Source: Phyllosticta citribraziliensis
Taxonomy: Eukaryota
NCBI RefSeq assembly: GCF_038025025.1
Contig: NW_027117341.1
Coordinates: forward strand, 2,479,642 to 2,499,641
DNA: 20,000 nt
Direction of reading: 5' to 3'
The notes under the pieces were generated by a model. The model did no database searches and had not been told where the DNA came from. It was given only the letters and a program-made list of their open reading frames with translations. Made by a program: the position numbers and the translations under genes. Positions 1 through 20,000 of this stretch are shown here, one piece after another. Positions within the stretch are counted from its first letter, which is position 1, and every line of letters begins with the position of its first letter.

Positions 1-303
1 CGTCGAGGCGCGCGTCATCCCTTGGAGCTGTGTGAAGATTGTTGCTGCGCTCGACGGGCGTGCTGGGCGCCCTTAGGCCGTCGTTGGTTTCGTCGAGGCG
101 TGCGTCGTCGTCCTCGTTGGATGCAGGGCTTGCAGCGCTCCTGAGCCATCTCGCAGAAAGCCGGACGGGATCCGCCGCACCCACAGCTCGACCACCGCCT
201 CAAAATTTCCACGCCTCTCCACGACGCCGCCCCCTGCCGCGCCTGCATCGGCAGCCCGTGTCCTGACCTCCTGACCGTCGGCGAGAAGTTGAACGGGAAG
301 CCG

Positions 304-329
304 AGAGACAAGGACAGAAGTGAAGAGGT

Positions 330-366
<37 letters not shown>

Positions 367-484
367 TTCGCAGCTTGACGTACCTGACCTTCAACATAAA
401 GTCAAGAGACAAGGACAGGAGTGAAGAGGCAAGTAGCAGTAGCAGCAGCAGCAGATTCGCAGCTTGACGTGTCCGACCTTCAAC
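304..484. repeat. Two-copy tandem duplication (304-395, 405-484) containing an AGC/CAG microsatellite
   Basis: AGAGACAAGGACAGRAGTGAAGAGGYAAG-(AGC)n-AGATTCGCAGCTTGACGT..GACCTTCAAC occurs twice. Copy 1 has (AGC)11 at 331-363; copy 2 has about 7 units, two of them AGT. Confidence 0.9.
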
Positions 485-1536
485 GTGTATGTGAGATGAA
501 AGGTGCTGGCGAAATAGGCGCGAATGTAAGGGAACGGGGAAGCGGCTGCGGTGCGCGACTCAACCCTAGATTCTCGAGGGGCAATGGGGGACGCCGGCAC
601 TCCACACTAGATGACTTGCCCCAAGCAGTAAAGTATTTGACAAAGTGGCAAGCAGAGTCGAAACACCTCACCAGAAGCCGTACTGCTCCAGCAGGCCCGC
701 CCGCTGTCTGATAGCCAGACGCCTCGCTCTTTGTGTCGTCCATCTTGTCCGGCGCAGCGCGCCCGCGGCAATGGCGTGAGCAGGAACTCGAGTGCCGCAC
801 ATGTAGCTGATAAGGAGCATGACGCAGAAGACTGGGTTGACTGTGTTGAGCGTTGGGATGATGTCGCGCGACGACCGGTTGTCAGGCGAGATGGTCCGAG
901 GTTGTGAGGACATCACACACAGCAGCCGTGTTGTGATCAACTCCGGCAGCGGTCTCATTTCCAAAATCCAGCCCCTCAGCACCACCGGCCTCGCCCCCCG
1001 TCCAGCCCGCCGACGTCCCTATCTACAGGCGCCCGGATGGCGCAGCGATGTGGAGTATGACAGCGAAGATGAGGACAGACAGCCATGAGCAAGGGATTGA
1101 GGTAGACGGCGAGTTTGGATGGAAATAGCGGGCCAGCTGAGCTTGTCAATGGCGCGCCGTGTACCAAAGTCGGCGGCCTCGAGGGCGCAAAAGCGCAATT
1201 TGTTGGCACCGAGACGGCGGCTTCGAGGGCTCACATCTTTGCCGCACTGGCGGTTGCAATGAGCAATGGCGCCGTTGTGAGACAACATGCTCCATGCTTG
1301 CCAGGTGTAAATTGTTCTGTTCTTGCGGGGTTGGCGTGACATCATAGCAAGGCTCTTGGGAGGACTGCGCGGTTGAAGACACTTTTCGACAGATGAAGGA
1401 TTGAGATGAGCGAGGATGCATAGATGGAGAGAAGAAGATGGAAAAACTGTGACTGCATGGATGGCGTTGGCGATTATCCGAATTCCATGGCCATTACGAT
1501 GTATCCGAGTAACTGAGACGAGGGATGAGAGGATAC

Positions 1537-2750
1537 CTAGACGGGACGCAGCGAGGTGGAACAGGGACAGACTGCAGGCTGATTGTGAGCGGAGACGAGA
1601 GAAAACGTACATTGCAATTGGAGATGATGGATTGCGAGTGGACGTGGTTCAAGCCAAGCCAAGCCGCCCTTCCCTTCGCTCCAGCACTTGGCCGCGACTA
1701 CAAACGGCGCCGCCGCCAGCCACCCTTTTCGACCTTGGGAACCAACTCTACGCACTTTGTCTCCCGCGTGTGATACAACGCGACTCTCGCCTCGCAGATT
1801 TTCCAAGGCAAAGGAGAAGAAGTCGATGAAGGCCTCGTACGCTTCCGCTGCAGAATACTCGGCCGCGATGGCTTGTGTCTGGTCGTTGATGCTGACAGAG
1901 GTTGTGGTGACGATGGTGGCTGCCAACCGGCGACGAAGGGTGTGGACCACAAGGCCGAGGTAGACAAGGAAGTGTATGCCATGGGAAAATCTTTTGCAGA
2001 CGGAAGAGGCTTTTTGACTGGGGAGGTTGCGGACGCTGTCACGGCGAGGATGTAAGCGCCGCCGTGGTGCGAACAGATTGTAGCGTTGTCGAGGCGAAGA
2101 TTGACATAGAATCTGTGACAGTGAGAGCGCATCTCAAGTCATGAACAAGCCAGCTAAACAGCACTCACGAAGATGACGGTCCAAAAAGTCGTAAATCGTG
2201 TCATAATTCTTGAGCATTTCCTTTCCTAGAGTCGTAAGTCACGGCGCTGAGCCGCGACACCACCATGAAGCGGCAAGCCACTCACATTATCCGAATAGAT
2301 ATGCCGCATCGGCTTGCGCTCTTGTTACGCTCTTTTCAATGCCAGCCGCCAGCCCCTGCAGCGGCGTCGGCACGGCGCCATTGGTGGGAGCGCCGGAGGC
2401 TCGATTGCCATCATGATGCGTACCGTGGCCAGCAATCAACAGCAGTGTCCAAATAGGTCTGCGCCCTGTACAGAACCACAATACGAGACCGCGCATCCCC
2501 CGCCTTAACCATCTTCGCCGCGCACCGAGCTTGCCTACGCCCTCTCGCGTGCCCTCGCCCGCGGCGGCGCTCGACCTCGATTGGTTGCCAAACTCGGCAG
2601 ACAGCTGTGCGAGTTCCTGGCTCGAATCATCTAGCGCGAGTCGAGAGTAGCATCAGCCGTCTGCTTCACTTTGTCAAAGTTGTCGTTTGCTCGGTCGACG
2701 AGGTCGTCCACGGGTACCGACCATGAGGACAACGGTGAGCGATCCGTCAC
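1537..2750 (-). pseudogene. Possible fragmented or spliced gene remnant, product unknown
   Basis: Protein-like stretches in different minus-strand frames (VPVDDLVDRANDNFDKVKQTADATLD; LALDDSSQELAQLSAEFGNQ; PLQGLAAGIEKSVTRAQADAAYLFG; DQTQAIAAEYSAAEAYEAFIDFFSFALENLRGE), but no continuous ORF and no recognised domain. Confidence 0.25.
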
Positions 2751-2851
2751 TATTTATTTCTTCGCGTTGGGTTCTTTCTGGTAGTGCTTCCCTGCTGCTT
2801 CTCGACAAGCGGAGCAGGGACAGCGGTGCAGCATGGAAAAGTTTGGGCTCA

Positions 2852-4546
2852 TCAAGCGTATCCCTTGCCCCACATGACGGGACTCCGTTCCTCCCGGCCC
2901 GCCATGAGCGGCTGATTCCCAACATTAAAGAAAATAGCGGCCAGTACCGCCGCGCGCGCCCACTCAAACTCGCAGCCGACGGGGTCGACGTCGCTGCTGT
3001 ACGCGCCGAGCGGGTGGCGCTCGAGCAGCTTGGCCGCTGCGGCTCGCATGGCCCCGAGCTCCTCGAGCACGTCCGTGTCGGCAAAGACCTGGACGCGCTC
3101 GTTCATCCAATGCCGCAGGTACTCGACTTGGTCCAGCGGGTTCAAAGGGAATGGAGATGGAGATGACTTGTTGACGGTGTCAAGATCAACGGCCATGTCG
3201 GCAATTACGCGCCGCGCCAGCTCCTCGCGCATGGCGACAAAGGCTGCGTACGTGGAGTCTTGGTCCGGCGTTGTGGTGCCGTCTTGTTGCGTCAGCGCTG
3301 CGACGGCCTTGCGCGCCGCGTGTCCCAAAGCAAGGAAGCGGGAGAGGTGCATCTCGTGGGTGTTGGGTTGGCGCTTGAGCGCCTTTTGCAGGAGAGCGAC
3401 CATGTCGAAGAAGATGGAGTTTGTCTTGGAGAACTGCAGCCTCCAGATCGAACTGATGGGCATTTCCGTGCTGGGAGCTCGTAGAGTCGGAAAGCTGAAG
3501 GTTACAATGTCTTCATAGCGCTGGCCTGTGCCCGTCGTGCTTGGACTTGCCGCCAGGCTCGAAGCAGCAGTGGCATCGCGCCTGGCCTCGTCCTGGCGAG
3601 CCAAGTCCAACATCTCTGCCGTGCCAATGGGCTCCGTTGCTTGTGTCGCCTTTTCCAGACGTGCCTTGGTTATTCGCTCCCAAGGCGGGACCGGGGATGC
3701 TGACGCCTTGCGCTTAGGTGGCGAGCAGACTGCCCACCCGAGCACCTCGTCGGGCGAAGCACCAACGGCAGTCTCGGGCGGCTGCAAGCCAAGGCCGACG
3801 CATGGTGCTTGAGTGTACTCGGGCGGCGGCTGCTCATCAACGTAAGGGTTCCAACAGCGTGCCTTTTCCGGGCCCAAGTCGTCGGTCGTGACGGGGTAGA
3901 GATCCCAGCGGTTGACGAGCAGCTCGTCATGTCCGCCTGAAACGTTGAGATCGAGGGCCGCGTCATGAAGACTGCCCCGATGTGCCGCCGCGACGACATC
4001 TTGCAGGACGCCGTCAAGTTTTTCACTCTTTGCAACGTACACATGGACCGTCTTGGTTGTGGTCAGCTTCCGCACGCACTCGATGAGGTACCCAGGCACA
4101 TCATCCAGGGGCCTTTGCACCCGTCTTCGACTCTGGGGCATGATGGTGTAGGGAAACTCGTTGAGTGACAAGGTAACGCGGATACAGTCAATAGAGAGGG
4201 CCGGATTGCTGTGCGCACGAGAGGCGGGTTGCGCGTTGACGGCGGCCTTGGTCACGGGCAGGACCAACAGGACGTCTTTCTTGGGCTTGGATGTCGACGA
4301 GCGAAGTTTGAGGTGTAGATTCAACAATACCAGTTTGCGCGAAACATTGTCCACGTCATGTCCGATCCAAAGAACAAAAGGTGTTTCTGAACCGAGACGG
4401 CCACCACTGCCATCCCCCAGGCGGCCGAGGTACTGCTCCATGCCCGTTTCTTCATCAAGCCATTGAACCACTGCCCATTCGCCTTGAACCTGCCACTCCA
4501 TCTTTGTGTCTAAACAGTGCTCGAGCGTTTTGTGTACACCGGCCAT
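2852..4546 (-). CDS. Hypothetical fungal protein, ~564 aa, single exon
   Basis: Longest ORF in the window. The track starts it at a TTG (4645); the first in-frame ATG is at 4546 (MAGVHKTLEH...). It has a globular-looking N-terminal part, a PPPEY motif, a basic PPKRK stretch, a low-complexity linker and a helical-looking C-terminus. No family recognised. Confidence 0.7.
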   Translation of the reverse strand: MAGVHKTLEHCLDTKMEWQVQGEWAVVQWLDEETGMEQYLGRLGDGSGGRLGSETPFVLWIGHDVDNVSRKLVLLNLHLKLRSSTSKPKKDVLLVLPVTKAAVNAQPASRAHSNPALSIDCIRVTLSLNEFPYTIMPQSRRRVQRPLDDVPGYLIECVRKLTTTKTVHVYVAKSEKLDGVLQDVVAAAHRGSLHDAALDLNVSGGHDELLVNRWDLYPVTTDDLGPEKARCWNPYVDEQPPPEYTQAPCVGLGLQPPETAVGASPDEVLGWAVCSPPKRKASASPVPPWERITKARLEKATQATEPIGTAEMLDLARQDEARRDATAASSLAASPSTTGTGQRYEDIVTFSFPTLRAPSTEMPISSIWRLQFSKTNSIFFDMVALLQKALKRQPNTHEMHLSRFLALGHAARKAVAALTQQDGTTTPDQDSTYAAFVAMREELARRVIADMAVDLDTVNKSSPSPFPLNPLDQVEYLRHWMNERVQVFADTDVLEELGAMRAAAAKLLERHPLGAYSSDVDPVGCEFEWARAAVLAAIFFNVGNQPLMAGREERSPVMWGKGYA

Positions 4547-4993
4547 GGTGGAGTTGCGGTCGGAAATCGAAGAAACGGGGTGTTGCGAACTGTGATCGAA
4601 GCTGTCGACGGTCAGAATGGCATACCGGATATGATGGACCGACAAACCTGATCCAGGACGGAATCGGGAGGCGGGGTTGCAGTAAATCGCGGCGTGGGGC
4701 CGGGCCCGCTGTCGACGCCGTCCACTCGGCGCTGTGCGCGCTGCGGTCGCGCTTACACGCGTCGCACGGGTAGGGCGTGAAGGAGCGGCGCTGCTGGGCT
4801 CGGTGAAGCAGAGCGAGATCGTTGATGGTGTGTGCTGCGTTTTGTTGCGTCTCTGGCGATGCTGGTTCGTGCTGGGGATCCCTAGATGCTCGAGTCAATA
4901 AGCACGGCCAACGAGCCACAGGGCGTCAAAAGACGCGACTTGCACCGGCAGTACTCGACTTCACCGGCTCGACTTCGTTTGCCGAGTGCAGGT

Positions 4994-5212
4994 GTCAACA
5001 AACGCGGCTAACGGGGCACACTTGGTCAAGTCGCAACGGGCGGCTTGCAAGGGCGCTGGCGTCAACACACGCCGCCAACAGGGCACTTTGGGCAGGTCTG
5101 CGATCCAAAGAGGGCGTCGTCAACACATATCGCGGCTAACGGGGCAACCTCTCAATCACATCCCAAGCGTCGACGACGGGGGGATGATGACGACGAGGCG
5201 CAAGCGTCAACA
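4994..5212. repeat. Short dispersed direct repeats GTCAACA-N(2-5)-CGCGGCTAACGGGGCA
   Basis: Copies at 4994-5018, 5061-5085 (degenerate) and 5119-5146, plus a GTCAACACAC half copy at 5206. Confidence 0.6.
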
Positions 5213-5838
5213 CACGTGCGCTGCGGGCTCGCTCGACGGGTCTTGCGCAGAACGAGTCTTGTCGGGGAGACAGGCCAGGCCGGGCTAGGCGAGGATGGAG
5301 AATATGGAAAAGAGCGAGATGGAGCGAAAAAATGATGACAACGGCGATGATGGTGATGGAGGTCAGATGGCCGTGTGTAGGGTGTAGAGTGGTAGAGACG
5401 GGGAAGAGAGCGGACGGGATAGGAGAGTAATAGAGTCGGGTACGTCTAAAGCCGAGGTAAGTTATATATAGCTAGTCTATAGTTAGTTAGTCCTAGGTAT
5501 AAAAATAATATATACTATTATTAGTAACTATATTATTATATTAATTTTCTCTATTTATATATTAATATAACTAATTCTACTTCTTTTAGATCTTCTAGTA
5601 TATCTAGTATCTATAAATATCTTAGAAGTCTTAGTATAGTTATTAATAAGAAATAATAGATATTAGAAGATAAATAATAAAATAAGATCTATTTTAAGAA
5701 ATAAGCTTAAATATAATATAAATAAATAAATAAATACTAAGTTTATTTTATTTTATTTTATTTTAAGAAAAGTTTAGATACTTATAAATAGACTAATAGA
5801 ATAATAATAAGTCTAGTAAAAGAAAAGAAGTCTAAAAT

Positions 5839-6522
5839 CTAGCTAAATACTACTAGACTAGCTACTTATTAAGTATCTTCTATTATAGTTTAGTCCTCTT
5901 TATAAGTATATAGTAGATAATAGAAGTTAGCTATAATATAAATTTCTAATCTAGTCTTCTTTTTAAATTTCTACTATAAAATACTAAGAACCTCTATATT
6001 TCTAGCTAAATACTACTAGGCTAGCTACTTATTAAGTACCTTCTATTATAGTTTAGCCCCCTTTATAAGTATATAGTAGATATTAAAGGGTAGCTATAAT
6101 ATAGACCTTTAATCTAGTCTATTTTTTTAAAAAATATTAAATTTTTAAAAATCTTCTTATTTTTAACTAAATACTATTAGACTAGCTACTTATTAAGTAT
6201 CTTTTACTATAGTTTAGCCCCCTCTATAAGTATATAGTAGAAAATAAAGAGTAGCTATAATATAGATCTTTAATCTAGTTTACTTATTAAAAAAATATTA
6301 AATTTCTAAAAACCTCTTTATTTCTAACTTAATACTACTAGATAGGCTACTTATTAAGTACCTCTTATTATAGTTTAGCCCCTTTTATAAGTATATAGTA
6401 AATAGTAAGAGGTAGTTATAGTATAAACCTCTAATCTAGTCTTTTTTTTAAGAAAATACTAAATTTCTAAAAATCTCTTTTTTTCTATTATAATACTACT
6501 AGAATAGCTACTTACTAAGTAT
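5839..6522. repeat. Subtelomeric tandem repeat array 1 (~161-163 bp unit, 4 full copies + 1 partial)
   Basis: Unit starting CTAGCTAAATACTACTAGACTAGCTACTTATTAAGTA recurs at 5839, 6002, 6163, 6324 and 6485. Confidence 0.92.
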
Positions 6523-6959
6523 ATACTTATATAATAAGGTCTATCTAACTAGTATATAGCTAGTATATAGATATATAGAGTCTATTTTTAAAGAAAACTC
6601 TATTCTATTCCTCTCTATTAAAAAGTAAAGAATCTACTATAGCTAGATTAAAGCTTAAGATATAACTATAATTTAAGCTTATATCTTATATTCTAGTTCT
6701 ATAGTATAGGTCTATAGCTTAAAATACTAAGATATTTTTATTTTTAAAAGTAGCCTCTCTTCTAGTCTTTTAAGTCTCCTACTAGATAAAAAGTAGAATA
6801 AGAAATTTAGATTTTAGTAAATCTATTAAATCTAGTCTAAATATATTTTTATCTAGTAGATATAAGCTAAAGTAATAGAGGAAAAAGTAGAAAGGAGAAA
6901 AAAAGTCTAGTATTTAATAAAATAATAGTAAGTTTATTAAAAGAAGAAAAGTCTAATTT

Positions 6960-7710
6960 CTAGTTAAATACTATTAAAATAGCTACTTATTAAGTACTTC
7001 TTATTATAGTTTAGCCCCTTCTATAAGTATATAGTAAGTAGTAGGGGGTAGCTATAGTATAGACCTCTAATCTAGTCTACTTTTTAAGTTTCTACTTAAA
7101 AATATTAATAACCTCTTTATTTTTAATTAAATACTACTAGATAGGCTACTTATTAAGTACTCTTTACTATAGTTTAGCTTCTTCTATAAGTATATAGTAG
7201 GTAGTAAAAAGTAGTTATAATATAGACCCTTAATCTAGCCTCTTTTTTAAGTTTCTATTTAGAAATACTAATAACCTCTCTATTTCTAACTAAATACTAC
7301 TAGATAGACTACTTATTAAGTACCCTTTATTATAGTTTAGCTCTTTCTATAAGTATATAGTAAATAGTAAGGGGTAGTTATAATATAGACTTCTAATCTA
7401 GCCTTTTTTTTAAATTTCTACTAAGAAAGAGATAGGAAAGAATTACTAGCTAAATATTATTAGACTAGCTACTTATTAAGTACCTTCTACTATAGTTTAG
7501 TACCTTCTATAAGTATATAGTAAATAGTAGAAGGTAGTTATAGTATAGATTTCTAATCTAGTCTACTTTTTAAAAAAATATTAAATTTCTAAGAACCTCC
7601 TTATTTCTAGCTAAATACTACTAGATAGGCTACTTATTAAGTACCTCTTACTATAGTTTAGCCCCCTCTATAAGGATATAGTAAGTAGTAGAAGGTAGCT
7701 ATAATATAAA
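6960..7710. repeat. Subtelomeric tandem repeat array 2 (same unit, 4 full copies + 1 truncated)
   Basis: Unit starts at 6960, 7123, 7286, 7446 and 7607. The last copy is cut at ~7710, directly before the degenerate telomere tract. Confidence 0.92.
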
Positions 7711-7711
7711 A

Positions 7712-7825
7712 TTAAAGTTAAAGTTAGAGTTAAGATTAGAATTAGGATTAAAGTTAAAGTTAAAGTTAGAATTAGAGTTAGAATTAAAGTTAAGATTAGA
7801 ATTAGAGTTAGAGTTAAGATTAAGG
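7712..7825 (+). repeat. Interstitial fossil telomere: 19 G->A-mutated TTAGGG units
   Basis: Strict 6-bp period TTARRR (TTAAAG, TTAGAG, TTAAGA, TTAGAA, TTAGGA, TTAAGG) over 114 bp, in the same orientation as the terminal telomere. Confidence 0.9.
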
Positions 7826-8112
7826 TTATAGTTAAGAAATAAATCTTAAAAGTAATTTATTAAGTAGGTAAAGAGATTAAGAGTTCTACTATTTATATAT
7901 AAATAGTTTTATCTTAAAGCTCTTTAAGAACTTAGTATAATAAAATCTCTTTATAAAGAGCTAGTTATAAAAAGTATTTTAATAACTAAGGTTATTATTA
8001 AGTAAAGACTTATATAACTTATTAATTAGTTTCTTATTTATAATAGATAAATAAGTAAAATATATTAAGTATTAAATTAGAAGTATTATCTCTACTTATA
8101 TAAAAAGAAAGA
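7826..8112 (-). repeat. Penelope 3' end / pseudo-LTR, internal copy
   Basis: Ungapped match to 19600-19886 (offset 11774), differing by transitions. Confidence 0.92.
7881..7933 (-). ncRNA. Type-I hammerhead ribozyme relic, internal copy (RIP-mutated)
   Basis: Minus strand reads AAGTTC-TTAAAGA-GCTTTAAGAT-AAAA-CTATTTATATATAAATAG-TA-GAACTC. This is the layout stem I / CUGANGA / stem II / GAAA / stem III / UA / stem I' after reverting transitions. Confidence 0.7.
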
Positions 8113-8130
8113 TAACTTAAAATTTATTTT

Positions 8131-8553
8131 TATTATAATAGATATATACGCGCCTATATAAGTACTAGAGCTAGTATAGATAAACCTAGTATTATATAGT
8201 TATAAGAAGTATAAGCCTTACCTTAAATAGTAGCCTACTATAGCTTAGGCTAAAACCTATAGGCTAGTACTAGCTACTATAGCCTAGTACTAGCTACTAT
8301 AGCCCTAGGTAGATACTATATAATAGCCTATTAATACCTTACCTTTATAACTTACCTAATAATAACTAAGGACCCTTATATAAAGGATAAGAAATAGAAT
8401 AGTATAAAGGAAGGACTAGAAAATATATAAGTAATAAGTATCTTTTATATTTTATTTTTTTAACTTATTAGATTTAATTAAGATATATATATATTTTCTA
8501 GTAGTTTACTTTTAGCCCTTATCTATATAATAAGAAATCTATAAGTTATAATA
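8131..8553 (+). repeat. 5' LTR (423 bp)
   Basis: Colinear with 15903-16325. Termini TATTATAAT...GTTATAATA/GTCGTAATA fit a RIPed TGTTACGAC...GTCGTAACA inverted repeat. Contains an internal 21-bp tandem duplication CTAGTACTAGCTACTATAGCC. Confidence 0.95.
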
Positions 8554-8565
8554 GATATAAAAGAT
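8554..8565 (+). promoter_or_regulatory. Primer-binding site of self-priming (Tf1/sushi) type
   Basis: GATATAAAAGAT lies immediately after the 5' LTR and is complementary to ATCTTTTATAT(T) inside the LTR at 8440-8451. No TGG tRNA-type PBS is present. Confidence 0.6.
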
Positions 8566-8799
8566 TATTTTAAGTTTTAGCTCTATTCTACTTCTTTATC
8601 TATAAAGGTATTATAATATTTAACCTAAATAATATTATATATAGCTATAGTCTTATATAAGACTACTTATTACTTTTCCCTAGTAAACCTAAGTTATCTT
8701 TATTAGGCGTATTAGTATTATCTAAGGACTAAGGAGTATTAAGTATATATTAACTATAAAAGTCTTTAGTTAAAGCTATAGAGTAATATATAAATATCT

Positions 8800-10286
8800 A
8801 AAAGGTATCCTATTTATAACCTACTTAAGAGATATTCTAAGTAGAAGACTATAAAGATAGTATAGCTAAGAATAAAGCTAATATATCTAGTACTACTAAA
8901 GGTATTAGTACTAGTTAATTAACTTAATAAGATTTATATAAAGGGACTAAAGATTTATATAATACTAGATACTTATTAAATAATAATAAAAGGGGACCTA
9001 CCCCTATTCTCCTATATAATTTCTACTTAGTCCTAGTAGTAGAGGTAAAAGAATATACCTAAGATCTAAAGTTAACTTATATAGTTTAAGCTCTAGTTAT
9101 AGAGGTATTTATAAAGGTACTATACTTAGATATTAATTAATTTAAATCTAAAATTATATCCTTAAATAAGTCTTAAGTATAGTAATAACTAAACTATATA
9201 TAAAGGTAGAACTAGGCTCTTAAGTAAATACTCTTAAACTATACTAATAGACTTAAAGAAGTTTTAAGGGAAGGATATATTAGGCCCTTTTTATTAGCTT
9301 AGTACTTAAGACCTATTACTCTTAAACCTCCTCCTAATTATATAAGAAAAACTACTACTAAAACCTCTATTTTATCTTTAAATAATAAGAAATACTATAA
9401 TAGTAAGGTTTCTAATCCTTTTCTTCTTACTAATAAAGAAGACCCCTTATATAAATACTAGACCCTCCTTATATAAAATAAAATTAAATAAAACTATAAT
9501 TACTTTACTAAAGATATAGTAGAGGAGACTAAATAAAATATTATAAGTTATATTATTTCCTATATTAGTAAAGAAGTCTTATATTACCTAACTCCTTTCC
9601 TTACTTCTTATATAAAGGCTAATAAAGTTACTTTAAATAAGGATATCTTTAAATTCCTAAATAACCTCTTTTAGAGTCTATATAAATATAAGGATATAAA
9701 GAAGTAATTATATTCTTTTATATACTATATCCTTATAGACCTTTAGAAGTTTTAATTAAACTTTATATAATTAGCCTTAGATATAGATCTTCTTTAAGAA
9801 TAGTAAAAAGAGGACTTTTATAATATAATAGATCCTCTCCTTTAAACCTATATAGTTACTATAGAGTAAGATAGGGATATTAACTTTTATAAGTATTTCT
9901 AATAAGCCTACCCTATTACTTAAAGTCTTAGTAACTACTATTCTAACTATAGAAAACTAATACTTATATTATATAAGGAATAAGTAAAGAAGAGATAATA
10001 AGAATAAGTAAAAATAACTATTTTAAATAGTATAAGTACTTTATCTTCTAGTTATATCTAGATATAATCTATATCTAGGGCTCCCTTATATAATATAACC
10101 TATAAAGGTAAAGTAGAAGTCTATATAGAGATTAGACTATATAATTACTATAGCTAGTTTAGCTATTTATAGAGATAATACCTATAACTAGAGATAAAGA
10201 TAATAGAGTTAGTTAAAGAAGAAAGTACTAAAGATATCTATATAAATAAAGAAGATTAGTCTTTATTAGAAAATAATAAGACCTAG
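8800..10286 (+). pseudogene. gag: Gypsy gag (RIPed; start and stop approximate)
   Basis: One frame carries a capsid-like PDPxxLxxxxDPxYExWxxxMxxKxxxNxDHF segment from 9411 and a CX2CX4HX4C knuckle at 10140-10181 (de-RIP C-NY-C-GQFG-H-LQRQ-C). It ends near SENDKT*. Confidence 0.75.
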
Positions 10287-13200
10287 GTAAAGTCTCTTAC
10301 TATAGGTCTAAACTTAGAGTAATATATATTAAGGGTTCTTATATAAATCTTAGTTACTTTATTAGAGGTATACCCTTTACTATATAAACCTTAATTATAT
10401 CTAATAGCTGTGCCTTAGAAATTTATACTCTAGCTAATACTAGTACTAGTAGTATAAGTTTTATTTACTTTAAGCTACTACTAACTCTCTAGTCTATAGG
10501 TACTATAAAAAAGAGAATAATAGGTAAAGGGCTTAATATTACTAGATTTAACTAATATATAAATAAGAAAGTTAATTTTTACTTTTATCTTTAACTCTAT
10601 TTCTAAGATTAAATAGTTTCTACTTATACTTTTATTTATAATATTAGCTATAATAATATAATTCTTAAGTAATAGTTTTTTAACTAGTATAATATCCTTT
10701 TAGACTATAAATAATATAAACTAGTCTAGAGATAGCTACTAGTTAACTAGTCTTTTTAGTATCTTTTATAACTACTAAAAATCTCTATATAAAGTAAAGA
10801 ACTATAGAAAGAATACTAAGTAGATATAGACTATAAAAATAAAAAATTTAATAAATACCTTCTTCCTTCTATATAGGTTATTAAGGGAATTAAATTCTAA
10901 ACTTAAAATATATTTAAGCTTTCTATTTATAAAATACAAGTTATACTAATAGAGATCTATACTATTAACCTTATATAAGTCTAAGTAGCTATTAAAGATA
11001 AGGAAACTAAGGAATTACTAGCTTTTAAGCTACTAGCTACTTATAAAGAATTTTAAGATATATTTTTTAAAATAGAGTCTAATAATCTACTACCCTATTA
11101 TATAAGAGTTAATTATAAAATATCTCTTATATATAATAGTCTATTAGAGCTTCTACTTAGTCCTCTCTATAAAATATCTCTAGAGCAGCTTAAGGCTATA
11201 AAAGAGTATATTATTAAAAACCTTTAAAAAGGCTTTATTATAAAGAGCTTTACTACTTATACTTCTCCTATTCTTATAGTAAAAAAGCCTAGTAGGGGAT
11301 AGAGATTCTATATAGACTACTAATAGCTTAATAAATAAACTACTAAGGATTTATACCCCCTCCCTCTTATTATAGAGTTACTTTAGTATATTAGAAAGGG
11401 TAAGATTTATACTAAGCTTAATATTTAATAAGCTTTTTACTATATTTATCTTACTAAGGATTTTAAAGATAAAACTACCTTCTATATAAGATATAGGTTA
11501 TTTAAATACTATATCTTACTATTTAGATTAAGTAATAGACCTATAGCCTTTTAATATTTTATTAACTAGGTTCTCTTTAAGTATTTAGATAATTTTATTA
11601 TAGCTTTTATAGATAATATACTTATTATCTCTAAAAACCCTATAGAGTATAAGGAATAAGTAAAAAAAGTACTAGTAAGACTATAAAAAGTAGGACTATA
11701 GATAGATTTAAAGAAGAGTAAGTTTTTAGTTACTTATATAAAGTTTCTTAAATATATTATTTCTATAGAAGGTATTTAAATAGACCTAGATAAGGTAGAA
11801 CCTATATAAAACTAGCTAATACTAAAAACCCTTAAAGCTCTTTAATCCTTCTTAGGTTTCTATAATTTCTACTAATAATTTCTCCCTAACTATAGATAAA
11901 TTAGCTAGCTATTAAAGAAACTATACTTTAAGGTAAAATAGTAATAACTAGGACCCTTAAAAGAAGAGGTAATTTAATAACTTAAGAAGCTAATATATAG
12001 TAATATACTTCTAGCTAATTATAACCCTACTCTTAATACTTATATAGAGACTAATATAAGTAATAGAGTTACTACTAGTATTTTAATATAGCTCTAGTAA
12101 TCTTTATATAATTAGAAACTAGTAGCGTTCTACTCTAAGGTAATAGTAGATATAGAACTTTATTATAAAATTTTAGATAAAGAACTACTAGCTATTAAGA
12201 ATAGACTAGAAGAATAGAGACTAATACTTATTAGCCTTAAAAAACCTTTTTTTATAATTATAGACTATTAGGTATTAGAGTACTACTCTACTAAATAATA
12301 ACTTAATTAATAATAAGCTAGATAGTTTAAGTTTTTTATAGAGTTCTATATATAATTCTCCTATTAACTAGAAAAGGAAAATATTATTACTAATTATCTT
12401 ACTTAAAAATAAGAAGACCTAAAGACTTAAAAAGAAAAAATAAGGGCTATATAAGAGATATATCTTATCTTATTAAAGACTATTATTCTTCTTTCTATTT
12501 TAAAATAAGAACTTCCTCCTCTAGTATTATTTTTAAATAAACTCTTCTATATAAACTAAGAAGATTTTAAATTAAAACTTTAAAAATAAAAAGCCCTCTT
12601 AAAGGACCTTAAATAAAGAAATAGTTAGGAACTAAAAAATAGTCTTTTACTATAATATAGTATACTCTTTATACTAGATTATAATAACCTCTATATAAAA
12701 ATACTTAATACTTTATATACTATCTATATAACTACCTATTCTAGTATTATAAAGATATAAAAACTCCTTAAGTAATATTATTATTAGCTAGCTATAAATT
12801 ATATAATTAATATTTATAGGTAAGGATACTATATTTACTACTAAATAAAGGAGTTTTATAATAAAGACCTAGGCCTTTTATAACTACTAGAGATTCCTAC
12901 TTAACCCTAGTAATACTTAGCTATAGATTTTAAAGAGATACCTAAGAACTAAAAAGGCTATAATATAATCCTAGTTATTATAAACTAGTTAAGTTAAAGA
13001 ACCTTTAGCTTACCTTATATAAAGAAGATTAATATTAAAGGAGTCTCTAGGCTTTTTTATAAATATATCTATTATATTTATAGAAACCCTAAGTCTATTC
13101 TATTTAACTAAGGCCCTTAGTTTATCTTAGTATTTATAAATAAACTATATAAGCTAACTAGTATAGAGTAGTATTTTAACTTATCCTACTACTTTTAAAC

Positions 13201-14110
13201 TAATAGTATTATAGAGATTATTAATTAGCATCTTATATAAAGATTAAGACCTTTTATTAATTACTTTTAGAATAATTAGTCTAATCTTCTACTATTAATA
13301 GACCTTATATAAGTAATACTTCTTTATAAAGCTACTAGACTTTTACTTTTTAAGATTAAGTTAGGATATTCCCCTTAATTATACTATAACTAGTAATAAA
13401 GAACTAAAACCCCCTAGTAATTAAAGAAAATAGCTTATATAGTAGTATAAATACTATAAAAGAGAAAATAAGAAGCTTTTAAATTTATAAAAAATCTTAT
13501 TCTTAAATCCTAAGAGTATATATACTAATAAGCTAATAAATACTATCACGTACTAGACTTTATAGTTAGAGATTATATCTATATTAAGAAAATAGAATAG
13601 TCTACTAATTAGTTAAACCTTAAATTAGACTTTCTTAATACTAGACCTTTTAAGATTATAGAAATAGAAGGACCCTTCTATATTCTTAATCTTTCCTTAT
13701 ATATAAAGATAGTTAACCTTTTCTATACTAATAGGCTATATAAGGCTAAAATAGAATAGCTTTTTAGTTAGGAATATACTAAACCTAAACCTAAAATTAT
13801 TTAAGATAAGCCTAAGTAGGAAGTAGACTATATTTAAGCTAGTTAAGTCTTATATAAAAAGCTTTAATACTAAGTTAAATAGACTAGATATAACTAAGAT
13901 AACTAGTAGTATAATATAAGTTCTTTTAGTAGTATACTATAGAAAATTAAAGAATTCTACTTATTATACCCTACTATAGTAGGACTACTAAAAAATCTAG
14001 AAAAATAGAAAACTACCTTCCTTTAAGAAGAACCCTAGATTAAAAGAGAAAGTAATAATAAAATAAGTTACTTAGACTTATAGTAAATATTATAAAGATA
14101 TAAAAAGTAG
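10270..14110 (+). pseudogene. pol: Gypsy pol: protease, reverse transcriptase, RNase H, integrase, chromodomain (RIPed)
   Basis: Same frame at every motif checked, -1 relative to gag. De-RIP motifs: ALADTGA (10427), KGFI..S...ASPIL.VKKPGGGWRFCVDYRQLN (11228), LPFGLSNGPA.FQ (~11515), AF(V/I)DD (11603-11617), VETDASD (~12045), DKELLAI, TDHQALEY, GLLQPLEIP.QPWQHLAMDF (12872), SDRGPQF, QTDG..E..NQ, GPFKI, and chromodomain EWEVD.I..SR....LQYQVKW.GY (~13814). Confidence 0.92.
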
Positions 14111-14210
14111 ACTAATTAGTTTACTATCTACTCTTATATAAATACTATTAATTTTAACTCCTACTCTTTAGTCTCTCTTTTTTATTACTTATTCTTTATT
14201 ATTTCTTTCT

Positions 14211-15800
14211 TTACTTCTTTCCTTTTCCCTTCTTCTTATTATAACTATTATTATATAAGATAGTCTCTTCTAGATCTTTTAGCTTATTAAGTAGGATATT
14301 CTACTTAGCTAAAGCCTAATTAGTTTAATCCTCTACCTTAGCTTAATAGTATAAGTTTTAAAACTTCTCTATATAAATTTTATCTTTATACCTCTTATAA
14401 TAAGTAGGCAGCTTAGTACTTTTTAAGTTACTAATAGTATAGTCTAAGTTACCTATACCTTAAAGGTAGTTAGTATAGCGGCCCTATAAGAAACTAGATA
14501 AGTAGTAATAACTAATAAATATATAAGTATTAGTATTATTATAATACTTAGTATAGCTAATAGGGTTATTAATTCTAGTATACTAGATAAGAAAAGTATT
14601 ATATAAGCTAGCTTAAGTTTTAACTAATAAGTAGTTAAATTACTAAGTAGAAACTATAATATATAAGTAAGATATACTATTACTTAAGGCTAAGATATAT
14701 TTAGTATGCTCTTATACTTTAAAACTACTAAGGCGCACCTATATAGTTAGTTAGATAAGAATCCCTTATATTAGTAAGATAAACTTACTTATATAATACT
14801 CTCTATATTTTTATAAGGAATATAAAGCGTCGACTTAAAGTTCTACTTAATAGGCGCCTTATTAGAGCTAACTAGTAACGCCGTAATATAAATCTTACTA
14901 TTACTACTATTATATAAAGTAGTAGGTAGTAAGTACTTAGCTACTAGAACCTAATAAGCTATAGGATTATAATAATAGTATATATAAGTAGGCTCTTTAC
15001 CTTCTTCCTCTAAAATAGGCTATATAATAGTAAACTAGTAGTAATATAGTATAATATACTAGTTAGTAGTAGGCTATATAGCTATAGATAATAAACCTTA
15101 TATAATAACTAATAATACTAATTAAGTAGAACCTAATACTATAGTATACTATAGATAAAGTAATAAGCCTATAGCTATTTCTAGCTAAATAAGTAAAGCC
15201 TAGCCTAATTAAGTCTTTATATAAGTATCCTCCTCTATAATTATATTAGTTAGTAAGATAGGATAATAAAGTAGTAAAACCTAGATATATAATACTACTT
15301 ATTAGCCTAGATAATAATTAGTAATAGTCTAAAGAGATAGAATTAAAGTTTACTTATCTTAGAACTCTATATAATAGTCTTTATAGATACTACTAGCTAA
15401 AATAGCTCTCTAAGTAAGCAGCGACTATAATAGATTATAAATAATACTATATAATAATAACTTAATACTATAACTCTTATATAATAGTAATAAGTCCTAA
15501 TAGACTAGACTATAATAAGTAGTAGATATATTAAGTATATAGTAGCTAGAAATATCTACTTTACTATTAGTAGGGTATAAATTATTTAAATTATTAGAAC
15601 CTTTATATATAATAGTTAGTTTACTAGATTATAGCTAAATTAGACTAGGGTAATAATATACTTTAATAAGGAGCTTTAGATATAGCTAAGTAAGATAGTA
15701 ACTTTCTATAGGTTATATAGTAAAAGAAATAGTAATAAAAAAGAGATAGTATAGTAGTAGCCCTAGACTAATAATTATACTTTATAACTATATAGAACGC
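14211..15800 (-). pseudogene. Extra antisense, intron-containing gene inside the Gypsy element (unknown product; 5' limit uncertain)
   Basis: The last exon (14738-14211) ends in a coiled-coil-like stretch and KKKGKGKK*. A 50-nt intron at 14788-14739 has a GTAAGT donor, CTAAC branch and TAG acceptor, and joins two protein-like frames in phase 0. A second branch site and acceptor lie at 15253-15235. Confidence 0.6.
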
Positions 15801-15892
15801 TTAAATTACTAAATTACTACTATTATATATTATAAGTCTATACCTATATAAGCGCCTATAGCTACTAATTCCTATAATTTTAGCTTCTCTTT

Positions 15893-15900
15893 AGGGGGGG
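15893..15900 (+). promoter_or_regulatory. Polypurine tract
   Basis: AGGGGGGG, 2 nt upstream of the 3' LTR start at 15903. Confidence 0.85.
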
Positions 15901-15902
15901 CA

Positions 15903-16325
15903 TATTATAATAGGTATATATATACCTATATAAGTACTAGGGCTAGTATAGATAAACCTAGTATTATATAGTTATAAGAAGTATAAGCCTTACCTTAGAT
16001 AGTAGCCTACTATAGCTTAGGCTAAAACCTATAGGCTAGTACTAGCTACTATAGCCTAGTACTAGCTACTATAGCCCTAAATAGATACTATATAATAGCC
16101 TATTAATACCTTACCTTTATAACTTACCTAATAATAACTAAGGACCCTTATATAAAGGATAAGAAGTAGAATAGTATAAAGAAAGGACTAGAAAATATAT
16201 AAGTAATAAGTATCTTTTATATTTTATTCTTTTAACTTATTAGATTTAATTAAGATATATATATATTCTCTAGTAGTTTACCTTTAGCCCTTACCTATAT
16301 AATAAGAAATCTATAAGTCGTAATA
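15903..16325 (+). repeat. 3' LTR (423 bp)
   Basis: Colinear with 8131-8553 and followed by the ATTTT target duplication. Confidence 0.95.
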
Positions 16326-16405
16326 ATTTTTAAAGTTATATAAATAATAAAAGAGATATATTTTAATCCTTAAATAATATTTTAAACTAGTTTAAAGTAT
16401 TATAA

Positions 16406-16435
16406 TTAGAATTAGAATTAGAATTAAGATTAAGA
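16406..16435 (+). repeat. Five degenerate telomere-like units inside the Penelope 3' region
   Basis: TTAGAA x3 then TTAAGA x2, consistent with G->A-mutated TTAGGG. Confidence 0.6.
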
Positions 16436-16699
16436 TCTTAATCTTTTAAAATAATACTAATAACTATAAATACTTAAAGGAACCTATAGAGGAAACTTCT
16501 TATATAAGTATTTATATAAAGAGATATAGTATAATATAGCTATAAACTAATATAAAGTAATATATATAAAGTATATAACTATAGGAGTATATAGTAAACT
16601 ATAATAAAAAGATTAGCTAAGGAGTTAAATTTTAAACTAATATACTAGCTATAAGTAGTAGCCTCTTTAAGGGGGTAGCTACTATAATTTAAATACTAT

Positions 16700-19578
16700 A
16701 AGCTATAAGAATTAGTAGTATAACTAGGTTTTTTAGTATAGCTCTTAGCTCTACTTAGTATTTCTTATAATCTAAATTTAGTATCTTAATAGAGAATTAT
16801 TAAATTTTTATAGTTATATATATTATATATATTATAACTATACTTAAGGGCTTTAATAAATCTTAAATATTATAAATTAACTAGAAGAGACTCTTAAAAA
16901 GATAATATTATTATAGTTTAAGTATCTTTAAGTTTACTTATATAAATATACTCTTAGGCTAGATTATATTTAAATAGTAAAATTAAGAATTCTTTTTATT
17001 TAAAATAAGTTATTAGGCCGCCTAAAAACTATTAATCTAATAAACTAGATAGGTACTTATAATAGTATAAATTAGCTTAAAAGTATTAGTAATACTATAA
17101 GAATAGTAGGTTATCTAAATAGATTATATATATATAAGTAAGTTTAGCTTTAATAAAAGCTTTCTTTACTAATACTAGATATACTAAAGAGAATAGAATA
17201 TATATATAGTAATTTAACTCTTTTTAAAATACTATTATATAAATATCTTTATTAAGGAAAACTTTAATATTAAAAAAGTATATTTAGTAAGTTAAAAATT
17301 TCTAAATAATCTTAAGCCTTAGTATTTTAAAACTAGCTAGTATAGCTTAATAGTCTTAAATTAACCCTTAGAAGATAAGGAAGATATTATTAATATAATA
17401 ATAATAAAAAATAAGTCTATATCTTTTTAACTTATTATATAAAGGTTCTTTAAAGTATATAGTAAATAAGTTAATAATTACTAGAGTATATACTATCCTT
17501 ATAGTAATACTATTATTCTACTTAAAGGTCTTTTTATTATACTTAAAGTAGTTATTATTTAAAATCTAGTAGAGTAAAATAATAATCCTATTATATAGAT
17601 TTTCTTTAAAATTAGTATATTATAAGAGATTCTCTATAATTAGTTTTATACTAATTACTAGAATATTTATATATATAGTAGTAATATTACTAGTAACTAG
17701 AATATATTTTATATAAAAATCTACTATCTTTAGATCCTAAATAAATAACTTTATTCTATTAAGGACTATAAGAAACTAATAAAGATTTTTTTAAAAAAAA
17801 TAATTAATAATTTCTAATATATAAGAAATAATCTAGCTATAACTTAAAATAATAGGCCTCTTCTTTTAAGGTATCTTATATACCTTTAGAATAATATAGA
17901 ACCTTAATAGATTAGTAGTTATAGTATAAAGATATTTTATAATTAGTTTTATCTATTTAAAACTAAGAAGTTATTAATATCTCTTAATAAATTTAAAAGG
18001 ATTAATACTAGTTACTAGCTTATATAACTAAGTATTAATAAGTAGTAGATTATATTATTCTATATACTAATCTTAAAAAAAAATAGTAAGATCTAGATTT
18101 TTATTAGTAATCTTAATAAGGTAATTCTTCTTAGTTAAGAACTACTATAGTATATAAAGCTATAAGTTAAATATATAGGATTAATTAAGAAGAGCTACTA
18201 CTTATAAAAGTAGTATAGCTTCTACTTTATTAATTATTTATTTAATCTTATATATTATAGGTAGTAGATTTTATAGAGACTTAATATAAAACTTTAAATT
18301 AAAATTAGTATTTTTATTATTATAAAAGAACTATTAGATTCTAATTATATACCTTAATTATTTTATTACTTAAGGTAGGAGGGAGTTATTCTTTTAAATA
18401 TAAAGAATAAATTTTTTATTTAGTAATAATTATTATTTTATCTCTAAAGGAAGAGATATTTTAAGAGTAAAGAAGTAATTATTTTAATATAATAAAATAA
18501 AATTTATAAAGTCTAGTAAGAAGTAGAGTAAATTAAAGTATATATATATATATAAATTTAAATTAAAAAATTTTAAGGGATAAGAGAGTATATCTCTTAA
18601 ATTAAAATACTTATTAATAGTATCTTTTAATTAAATTAGCTTAACTATTATTTCTTCTTTCTATTTAGCCTTTCTTTTTTATAAGTAACTAGTAGCTACT
18701 AGTACTTTACTACTTTAATTAGTTTAGAATAGCTATTTAACTTTAGTTAACCTTATAGTAGAAATAAATAATAAGTAGACTATAAAGTAGTTATATAATA
18801 TACTTTTCTAGGTTCTTAGAGTCTTTTTATTATATACTATAAGAGTATATTAAACTACTTACTTAATTTATTAAGAGATATTATTAATAATAGTATTAGA
18901 TATCTATATATCTATATCTTTTTTAAGCTTAAGCTTAGATATTTTTAATACTAGGTTATACTAGTATTTAGTAAATCTAATAGCTATAGCTTTATAATAA
19001 AGCTTAAGACTATTAGTTTATATATAGTTTAGTTTATTAATATAAAATAATATATATATTATTTTACCCTTTTAATTAATATTTAATATAAATATAGACT
19101 TAAAGAGCCTATAGATATCTTCTACTTTTTTAATTATAAAGTTTTTAAGTCTTATAAATAAGATTATCTTTAATAAGAACTTATACTTTTTCTATTTTAA
19201 CTAGATAGAAGCTTCTAATATAGAGTATTATATTATATAAACTATATAATTTAAAGTAAAATACTATTTTTATTATTAGCTTATATCTTTAAATTCCTTT
19301 ATTATTTATATAATTAGTAATTTTAGGGATCCTAATAAGACTAAGAAAAAGATACTATTAATAAAGTATCTTTTAAAACTTAATAGGGTTATCTAGATAT
19401 AAGAGGCTTTAACTATAATATTAAAGAACTTATAATATAGGGTTATAAAGTAGTATATAAAAGTCTTTAGTATAATTTAATAGAGCTTATTAATTATTAC
19501 TATACTAGTAAGGTTCTAGATATATATATTAAGGTTAACTATAGTAATAGGACTAGTAAGAGTAATTAAAGTAGGTAT
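16700..19578 (-). pseudogene. Penelope-like ORF: N-terminal coiled-coil-like region plus reverse transcriptase, ~950 codons in one frame (C-terminal limit approximate)
   Basis: De-RIP translation in a single frame: probable start MPTS (19578), H..NGT.P....GSLK.P..Q..KEF, KKDADVQM, LSLN.KFIPH, KFHVKS.WNPPP, TDKNLGLAV....WY (DKNLG at 18105-18091), PRFHVIPKVHK.PWKGRPI.PSHSWIT (~17905-17825), LVTGDVTAMYTNIP (17700-17659), Q..GIAMGTACAP.IANLF (17520-17464), RYIDDIFLIF (YIDD at 17397-17386), FLDI, YMYIPFSSAHP..VKKAFIKAEL.R...ICS, NL.RRGYP, LPSEYNP.WEY. No GIY-YIG domain seen. Confidence 0.9.
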
Positions 19579-19599
19579 AATTTAATAAGTAGGTTAGAA

Positions 19600-19886
19600 T
19601 TATAGTTAAGAAATAAATCTTAAAAGTAATTTATTAAGTAAATAAAGAGATTAAAAGTCTTACTACTTATATATAAATAGTTTTACTTTAAAGCTCTTTA
19701 GGGACTTAATATAGTAAAATCTCTTTATAAAGAGCTAGTTATAAAAAGTATTCTAGTAATTAAGGTTATTATTAAGTAAAGACTTATATAACTTATTAGT
19801 TAGTTTCTTATTTATAATAGATAAATAAGTAGAATATATTAAGTACTAGGTTAGAAGTATTATCTCTACTTATATAAAAAAAGAGG
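19600..19886 (-). repeat. Penelope pseudo-LTR, terminal copy, truncated and capped by the telomere
   Basis: Matches 7826-8112, is preceded by the telomere-like linker AGGTTAGAA (19591-19599), and runs directly into TTAGGG repeats. Confidence 0.92.
19655..19707 (-). ncRNA. Type-I hammerhead ribozyme relic, terminal copy (RIP-mutated)
   Basis: Minus strand reads AAGTCC-CTAAAGA-GCTTTAAAGT-AAAA-CTATTTATATATAAGTAG-TA-AGACTT. Combining both copies gives GAGTCC CTGAAGA GCY-TTAA-GGY GAAA CTACTT-N6-AAGTAG TA GGACTC. Confidence 0.72.
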
Positions 19887-20000
19887 GTTAGGGTTAGGGT
19901 TAGGGTTAGGGTTAGGGTTAGGGTTAGGGTTAGGGTTAGGGTTAGGGTTAGGGTTAGGGTTAGGGTTAGGGTTAGGGTTAGGGTTAGGGTTAGGGTTGGG
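19884..20000 (+). repeat. Telomere (TTAGGG)n, chromosome end
   Basis: AGGG, then 18 perfect TTAGGG units (19888-19995), then a final TTGGG at the end of the window. Confidence 0.99.

Follow-up and report, generated by a model that had tools for sequence, protein, structure and literature searches.

A fungal chromovirus family with ~1.8 kb of extra sequence after pol, and the case for a possible decayed antisense gene within it

Main finding

A stretch of 20,000 nucleotides from Phyllosticta citribraziliensis (contig NW_027117341.1, positions 2,479,642 to 2,499,641), referred to below as the window and used for all coordinates, contains a complete Ty3/gypsy chromovirus in which a spacer of ~1.8 kb lies between pol and the polypurine tract (PPT). 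This spacer is a family-wide, lineage-specific addition that is not private to the copy in the window. Its coding statistics suggest, with a probability that we put at about 0.5, that positions 14211–15234, the 3′ two-thirds of the insert, are what is left of a protein-coding gene that was read from the minus strand and converged on pol. The support for such a gene is purely statistical. Together, the two candidate exons have 26 stops in 324 codons and not a single ATG; thus, nothing in the window copy is functional.

Structure of the chromovirus

The chromovirus is complete and flanked by a target-site duplication (TSD), and the spacer is therefore internal to the retrotransposon (Table 1). 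The two long terminal repeats (LTRs) are 96% identical across their first 300 nt and carry the terminal inverted octamers TATTATAA and TTATAATA. The end of the 3′ LTR is confirmed by a contig of the public run X5, which continues there with the sequence found after the 5′ LTR. The PPT begins at the very position that the original prediction, made by inspection of the letters of the window, had given. In addition to the LTR pair, TSD and PPT, the element shows the order of reverse transcriptase (RT), RNase H and integrase expected of Ty3/gypsy chromoviruses, with a chromodomain at the C-terminus.

The identity of pol was established by several routes. In the plus frame starting at 8402, Pfam recognized RVT_1 (E = 1.7e-13) and RT_RNaseH_2 (E = 1.2e-9), with two RNase H models in all; neither rve nor the chromodomain PF00385 was called directly on this frame, which has been degraded by repeat-induced point mutation (RIP). 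The true frame of pol has 125 stops in 1176 codons and is without any ATG. When 10904–14089 was read through with X at the stops, the resulting query of 1062 aa matched 160 Pol proteins, among which those of fungal Ty3/gypsy elements ranked at the top and those of plant and animal elements further down. The best match had an E value of 1.2e-154, with 32% identity and 95% coverage, and several of the matches bear a chromodomain. For fungal Pol proteins that have rve and integrase zinc domains after RT/RNase H, 92–97% of the length is covered by this read-through. Finally, the C-terminus of pol (13703–13972) aligns by BLASTP (E = 9e-10) to residues 1129–1218 of the 1259 of a fungal Pol (P0001) with PF00385 among its Pfam domains, and the aligned residues belong to the chromodomain end of that protein. 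As this alignment ends at 13972, the original pol stop can be placed near 14095. Both the assignment to the chromoviruses and the gap of ~1.8 kb between pol and PPT, as first proposed, are upheld by these results. Upstream of pol, a codon model trained on pol only parses the gag-like relic as one plus frame; Pfam found no match in it.

The GC-poor part of the window, which includes the chromovirus, bears the signature of RIP. In pol, spacer and LTR, TpA/ApT is 1.75–1.86 and (CpA+TpG)/(ApC+GpT) is 0.00–0.02, while the same two indices are 0.50 and 1.25 in the GC-rich flank. The GC content of the chromovirus is 0.22–0.26; for the spacer, it is 0.24, with a TpA/ApT of 1.86.

Table 1. Features of the chromovirus and of its spacer in window coordinates (PR, protease; IN, integrase)
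Feature	Position	Strand	Basis or remark
Complete Ty3/gypsy chromovirus	8131–16325	+	LTRs, TSD, PPT; LTR-plus-internal unit 7.77 kb
TSD ATTTT, 5′ copy	8126–8130		read directly
5′ LTR, 423 bp	8131–8553	+	aligns with 15903–16325
gag-like coding relic, approximate	8977–10020	+	codon-model parse and base periodicity (p = 1.4e-5)
pol (PR?-RT-RNaseH-IN-chromodomain), RIP-inactivated	10562–14095	+	Pfam and Pol protein matches
Spacer of ~1.8 kb, pol to PPT, family-specific	14100–15892		contig cover and absence from relatives
Possible antisense polyadenylation region	14178–14200	-	AATAAA at 14200–14195 and 14186–14181; possible RNA end at ~14178
Candidate last exon of antisense gene, 176 codons, 13 stops	14211–14738	-	best of six frames by codon model
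Intron-like motif GTAAGT..CTAAC..TAG, 50 nt, phase 0	14739–14788	-	read directly
Candidate upstream exon, 148 codons from 15232, 13 stops	14789–15234	-	best of six frames; coding-like patch 14801–15082
Spacer part lacking a coding signal; may hold the promoter or 5′ region of the antisense unit, if real	15235–15892		codon model and periodicity
PPT AGGGGGGG	15893–15900	+	read directly, 2 nt before 3′ LTR
3′ LTR	15903–16325	+	repeat of 5′ LTR
TSD ATTTT, 3′ copy	16326–16330		read directly

The spacer within the family and in related elements

Contigs of four public runs (X1, X5, X7 and X16) were placed on 13001–16400 at a likeness of at least 80%. Two of the DNA runs, X1 and X5, cover the spacer in every one of 30 bins, and X7 covers 27 of these; the three runs bear three organism labels. 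Moreover, the junction itself is present in several of the runs, with contigs that bridge the end of pol into the spacer at 14016–14192 (X5), 14082–14266 (X7) and 13997–14151 (X16). Thus, the segment is not confined to one copy; its absence from other copies was among the outcomes that the original prediction had named as counting against it. The differences between copies are mostly T>C and A>G, which indicates that the other copies are less, or differently, affected by RIP.

To find related elements, the 19 best Pol matches were aligned, and the alignment was used to scan contigs of metagenomes. This gave 78 loci, of which the 48 whose match spans most of pol were examined and the 30 with truncated pol matches were set aside. 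In the 23 loci flanked by a pair of LTRs, 51–314 nt separate the 3′ LTR from the point where the pol match ends, compared with ~1.8 kb here, in agreement with the earlier statement that pol usually ends close to the PPT. Similarly, five contigs with collapsed LTRs have LTR-plus-internal units of 5.5–6.1 kb, compared with 7.77 kb. Spacer-like sequence was found in none of the 78 loci when these were searched by tblastn with the six spacer frames (best E = 2.1, against 4e-41 for the pol C-terminus as a control). Viral contigs were scanned with the same Pol alignment as well, and none of the 113 pattern matches was confirmed. Many of the related loci (L013–L074, from one metagenome with contigs named Ga0307507...) have a GC content of 0.35–0.41 and pol frames that are broken early; these loci are likely RIP-affected as well.

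Within the window, a stricter blastn search with the spacer returned 12 short and weak matches (22–113 nt, 72–95% identity, E = 1.7e-5 to 0.009). A permissive search gave alignments of ~59% identity, which were rejected as purely compositional. The tandem repeats detected in the spacer by Tandem Repeats Finder (TRF) are short, weak low-complexity runs, including a pyrimidine tract at 14165–14224.

Coding signal of the spacer

The spacer shows a three-base periodicity (chi2 = 31.5, p = 2e-5) that is strongest at 14101–14700, weaker at 14701–15300 and not significant at 15301–15900 (p = 0.23). In the coding controls, the same test gave p = 5e-10 for pol and 1.4e-5 for gag; in the non-coding ones, namely RIP-degraded tandem-repeat DNA at 5794–7710 and the LTR, it gave p = 0.81 and p = 0.2, respectively. 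Periodicity is therefore an argument against a non-coding spacer. It agrees with a codon log-odds model that was trained on the RIP-mutated gag and pol of the chromovirus itself. When such a model was trained on pol and cross-validated over 12 windows of 300 nt, the true frame ranked first among the six in 10 of them and tied for first in another; the discrimination of coding frames is weak but real.

When the model was applied to the spacer, the two minus-strand frames of the original prediction came out best of six in their respective segments. Over 14211–14738, the proposed last exon scored +15.1 bits, with +8.3 for its plus mirror and -18 or below for the other frames. Over 14789–15234, the proposed upstream exon scored +11.1 bits, with -19.2 for the plus mirror. 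In total, the minus frames amount to +26.2 bits and their plus mirrors to -10.9. The simulated chance of such best-of-six scores is 0.003–0.005 for the first segment and 0.012–0.016 for the second. When stops are ignored, the last-exon frame still scores +13.4 bits (P = 0.008) and the upstream frame +11.9. Furthermore, two patches of at least 18.1 bits lie on the same strand, at 14175–14444 and 14801–15082, a result obtained with P = 0.003 in 2000 second-order Markov (Markov-2) simulations. Across 15235–15892, the model is negative in every frame.

The position of the change between the two frames is also informative. The best switch falls at 14762–14763, and the interval within 3 bits of it, 14738–14803, lies on an intron-like motif. 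This motif, predicted at 14788–14739 as a 50-nt intron that preserves the phase, is exactly present, in phase 0. Additionally, the minus frame with the fewest stops across the spacer contains 48 in 600 codons, with P = 0.011 for the lowest of six frames under Markov-2 and third-order Markov models. Stop density was rejected as stand-alone evidence, given that the non-coding mirror frame of pol has 103 stops, compared with 125 in the true frame of 1176 codons.

The peptides quoted in the original prediction proved not to be literal translations and had rather been mentally restored to their state before RIP. Literally, the proposed upstream exon (148 codons) and last exon (176 codons) contain 13 stops each, and neither has a Met codon. 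The literal minus-frame translation includes PILEEEGKEPTYI, KIYITALLVSSNKAPIK*NFKSTLYIPYK, VRLSSFKV*EH, FL*GR, KLKDLEE and KKKGKGKK* (asterisks denote stops), and the description of the upstream exon as rich in S, P and Q cannot be read from the actual sequence. The basic tail falls in a tract that is purine-rich on the minus strand (the pyrimidine tract of the plus strand found by TRF), where the other two minus frames are also rich in K, E and R.

Possible transcripts

Among the runs placed on the region, X16 is only guessed to be RNA, and no run on record as RNA covers the stretch. The cover of the region by X16 is patchy. The left end of one of its contigs consists of 16 untemplated T before 14178. 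On the minus strand, this end corresponds to a poly(A) located 33 nt past the proposed stop and 17–22 nt past AATAAA, so that this one contig gives a weak hint at antisense polyadenylation. The poly-T end could alternatively stem from internal priming, the minus strand being A-rich, and this would also require minus-strand RNA.

In the same run, a loose end before 15971 (window 15941–15970) carries a GC-rich version of the LTR that differs almost only by transitions. This implies that a copy of the family that has escaped RIP, and is possibly expressed, exists in the organism labelled A.

Evidence against an antisense gene and alternative explanations

Several results weigh against an antisense gene. 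No homologue was found. Pfam gave nothing at E ≤ 0.1 in the six frames of the spacer, a search of low sensitivity on RIP-mutated sequence. Searches of large protein libraries covered the minus frames: a phmmer search of 1.84 billion representatives with the low-stop minus frame at full length, that of the candidate upstream exon, gave no match at E ≤ 1e-3, and word-indexed searches with the other minus frame, that of the candidate last exon, examined 924 and 21 candidates, none of which reached E ≤ 10. Three frames compared with the PDB gave a best E of 0.044. This last match, to a nucleoside deaminase (16 bits), was dismissed as chance, as was one to eL32 (E = 0.91). The RIP-mutated pol control found its relatives at 1.2e-154, with ~0.5 bit per residue; thus, an intact protein of the same family should have shown, if present in the libraries, and a distant relative such as BRTN (see below) would not. 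Related elements offer no counterpart either. In 47 of the loci, 13 antisense open reading frames (ORFs) of at least 100 aa were found, with none shared between loci, and these had no likeness to the window frames (best E = 0.39).

Other objections come from the statistics and from the runs. An unbiased seven-state Viterbi parse assigned 14164–14406 to minus, 14407–14799 to the plus mirror and 14800–15081 to minus, followed by non-coding sequence. Mirror-frame flips also occur inside pol in the cross-validated control; this fragmented parse is therefore compatible with the antisense model if 14407–14799 is a mirror-frame error, and it is not a clean gene call. With stops ignored, the upstream segment scores +13.2 bits in a plus frame compared with +11.9 in the minus frame. 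Of the 21 listed copy differences in the spacer, 12 fall at one codon phase, which does not fit the last-exon frame. This skew was given no weight because the 14 listed pol differences show no third-position excess in a hand count. As regards the intron, 4 instances of the intron-like pattern were counted on the two strands of 14,350 nt, compared with 4.8 ± 2.2 in Markov-2 simulations, so that the motif by itself is uninformative. An X16 contig with adaptors at both ends spans 14723–14858 ungapped, with the putative intron unspliced, and a joint at 14739–14788 was found in none of the four runs, in which four joints were listed elsewhere at low depth. Hence, of the predicted intron, the motif, its length and its phase stand, without a spliced junction and at a frequency expected by chance. 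The exact two-exon model is less likely than not to hold as drawn.

The most serious alternative is that the spacer is a non-coding 3′ internal expansion, made of untranslated sequence or degenerate repeats, and that its coding statistics are due to chance or are an artefact of RIP. Such an origin would account for the lack of a homologue in any frame searched, for the fragmented parse, for the chance frequency of the intron motif and for low stop counts, which occur in the mirror frame of pol too. It is also favored by the best single patch score, which alone is not significant (P = 0.056–0.07), and by the location of the 3′ terminus of the candidate ORF within the low-complexity pyrimidine tract with its short tandem repeats. 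By contrast, it leaves unexplained a periodicity that is missing from the non-coding controls, the two patches on the same strand and the coincidence of the frame switch with a splice-like motif of the right phase, and the rest of the spacer has only short and weak tandem repeats. Taken together, a non-coding expansion is unlikely, although it is to be taken seriously.

Less likely still is a foreign origin of the spacer, in which a mobile element (such as a small DNA transposon with terminal inverted repeats) or a fragment of a gene landed in a master copy and was amplified along with it; the coding signal would then be that of a decayed transposase or host gene and not of an accessory gene that serves the retrotransposon. 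An inverted repeat at 14161–14197 and 15723–15760 (32 of 38 nt, with an exact core of 16 nt) brackets 1.6 kb, whose removal would bring pol to ~200 nt from the PPT, a distance like that in the relatives, and the segment is absent from these relatives. Nevertheless, the repeat is not significant in Markov simulations (P ~0.12 for the exact 16-mer and ~0.13 for the best local score), and other parts of the window score equally or higher. Neither Pfam nor HMMER detected a transposase, and a clear target duplication is not visible at the ends of the repeat.

The remaining possibility, a third sense-strand ORF after pol (env-like or an extension of pol) in the one plus frame whose third codon positions coincide with those of the low-stop minus frame, can be regarded as very improbable: the phase of the periodicity fits it as well as the minus frame, it wins the parse at 14407–14799 with 14.9 bits, it makes 11 of the 21 listed copy differences synonymous and its translation of 14103–14260 is very hydrophobic, but it has 69 stops in 600 codons compared with 48, its codon-model score is -42.6 bits for the spacer in full and -11 for 14789–15234, its hydrophobic stretch is the pyrimidine tract, where all three plus frames are rich in L, F, S and I, and Pfam and the PDB gave no match for it better than E = 0.044, the large libraries not having been searched with this frame.

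In summary, for the antisense gene as originally proposed, the codon scores of the minus frames, the periodicity and the family-wide presence of the spacer hold up, and the lack of a homologue and the fragmented parse do not fit it well.

Comparison with known antisense genes

The architecture in which an antisense gene lies between pol and the 3′ LTR is already known. In fungi, the gene brtn has this position in Boty-like chromoviruses of Botrytis cinerea and Sclerotinia, according to passages that credit it to Zhao et al. 2011 (PMC8365987, PMC4227169, PMC5987419, PMC7264820). Thus, the layout with a third gene given in the original prediction had been reported before. What would be new, if true, is an independent fungal case with an intron. 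By description, rather than by comparison of sequences, the two systems are alike in being fungal Ty3/gypsy elements with a chromodomain and an extra antisense gene (a candidate one in our case) of no known function between pol and the 3′ LTR. They differ in that a Boty construct without LTRs is described as 4.98 kb long, far more compact than the LTR-plus-internal unit found here, in that the citing passages do not mention an intron in brtn and in that the window copy is dead. No fungal example besides brtn turned up in a literature search that was not aimed at spliced antisense genes in fungal elements.

Antisense ORFs (aORFs) between pol and the 3′ LTR are also described for the plant elements Retand, Grande (gene23) and RIRE2 (PMC11963269, PMC7264820); a nuclear or regulatory role is proposed for them there and the gene of Grande is said to have its own promoter. 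The resemblance to this Retand/Tat group consists of a long interval between pol and the 3′ LTR together with antisense ORFs in most copies of a family, the ORF being a candidate in our case. Unlike the element described here, however, the plant elements are not chromoviruses, and the same sources give them intervals of 2.9–6.6 kb, compared with 1.8 kb. Most of them are reported to encode Transposase_28 (TRP28, PF04195), which was not matched in any spacer frame by Pfam at E ≤ 0.1 (with the low sensitivity on RIP-mutated sequence noted above), and about half are reported to hold tandem-repeat arrays, which are absent from the spacer. An unusually long interval between pol and the 3′ LTR that most copies of a family share is a trait of the aORF-3R class (brtn, Grande gene23 and Retand ORF4), and it is found here.

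A further parallel is provided by deltaretroviruses, whose antisense genes include HBZ of HTLV-1 and APH-2 of HTLV-2 (PMC11963269). These share with our candidate an antisense unit in the 3′ terminal part of a retroelement, with transcription from the side of the 3′ LTR and a nuclear regulator as its product, features that are presumed in the fungal case. They belong to a vertebrate retrovirus lineage, and no sequence relation is expected. HBZ also has a spliced form.

Surroundings of the chromovirus

The GC content is 0.55–0.63 at 1–5500 of the window and then falls to 0.16–0.27 at 5500–19880. An array of (TTAGGG)n closes the window at 19884–20000, and the chromovirus thus sits near a telomere. 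Pfam matched no family in any frame of the flanks at 1–5500 and 16330–19880. The GC-rich flank holds a stop-free frame of 680 codons on the minus strand (2852–4894). Between the GC-rich genes and a run of telomere-like hexamers lie the RIP-degraded tandem repeats used above as a control, which have a period of 161–163 bp.

The 295 bp just inside the true telomere (19591–19885) have a duplicate of 91% identity at 7817–8111, directly 5′ of the chromovirus. This duplicate is preceded by RIP-degraded telomere-like hexamers at 7702–7842, and further degraded hexamers lie at 16396–16436, 70 nt beyond the 3′ LTR. It looks as if a former chromosome end had been duplicated or extended, with the chromovirus sitting at the old end. 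Between the chromovirus and the telomere, the RIP-mutated segment 16777–19875 shows three-base periodicity (p = 4.5e-4 and 5.8e-3) and is parsed by the codon model as a single mirror pair of frames; it is probably another destroyed coding relic.

Biological meaning

The chromovirus family acquired ~1.8 kb between pol and the PPT. If the antisense gene is real, its workings may be sketched as follows. In intact copies, antisense transcription could start from a promoter of its own, in the ~650 bp beside the PPT, or from the 3′ LTR. The 50-nt intron would be spliced from this transcript, which may be polyadenylated near 14178, downstream of AATAAA, as the single contig hints. Because of its antisense orientation relative to the genomic RNA, the intron would escape splicing before copying to DNA and would be inherited at each retrotransposition. 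That antisense introns survive until reverse transcription is established from antisense-intron retrotransposition reporters. By analogy with brtn, Grande gene23 and HBZ of HTLV, the protein may be a regulatory accessory factor; the nuclear and anti-silencing roles put forward in the original prediction are speculative. Carried to its full extent, this account would have an ascomycete chromovirus lineage that once acquired an intron-bearing antisense gene unlike any known protein, brtn included, with its own promoter and poly(A) site, and kept it in all copies across several species. In that extended form, the proposal is a doubtful one.

The immediate value of these observations is modest: they define well a family with an unusual insert of 1.8 kb, represented in the window by a dead relic, and the claim that the insert is coding is statistical. 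Nevertheless, LTR retrotransposons rarely carry accessory genes, and those that are known lack an assigned function. If true, the present case would be a second one in fungi, independent of brtn and with an antisense intron, which would show that chromoviruses repeatedly take up regulatory cargo. Retroviral antisense regulators such as HBZ would then have a counterpart in fungi, and fungi with intact copies would offer a tractable system for asking what such proteins do.

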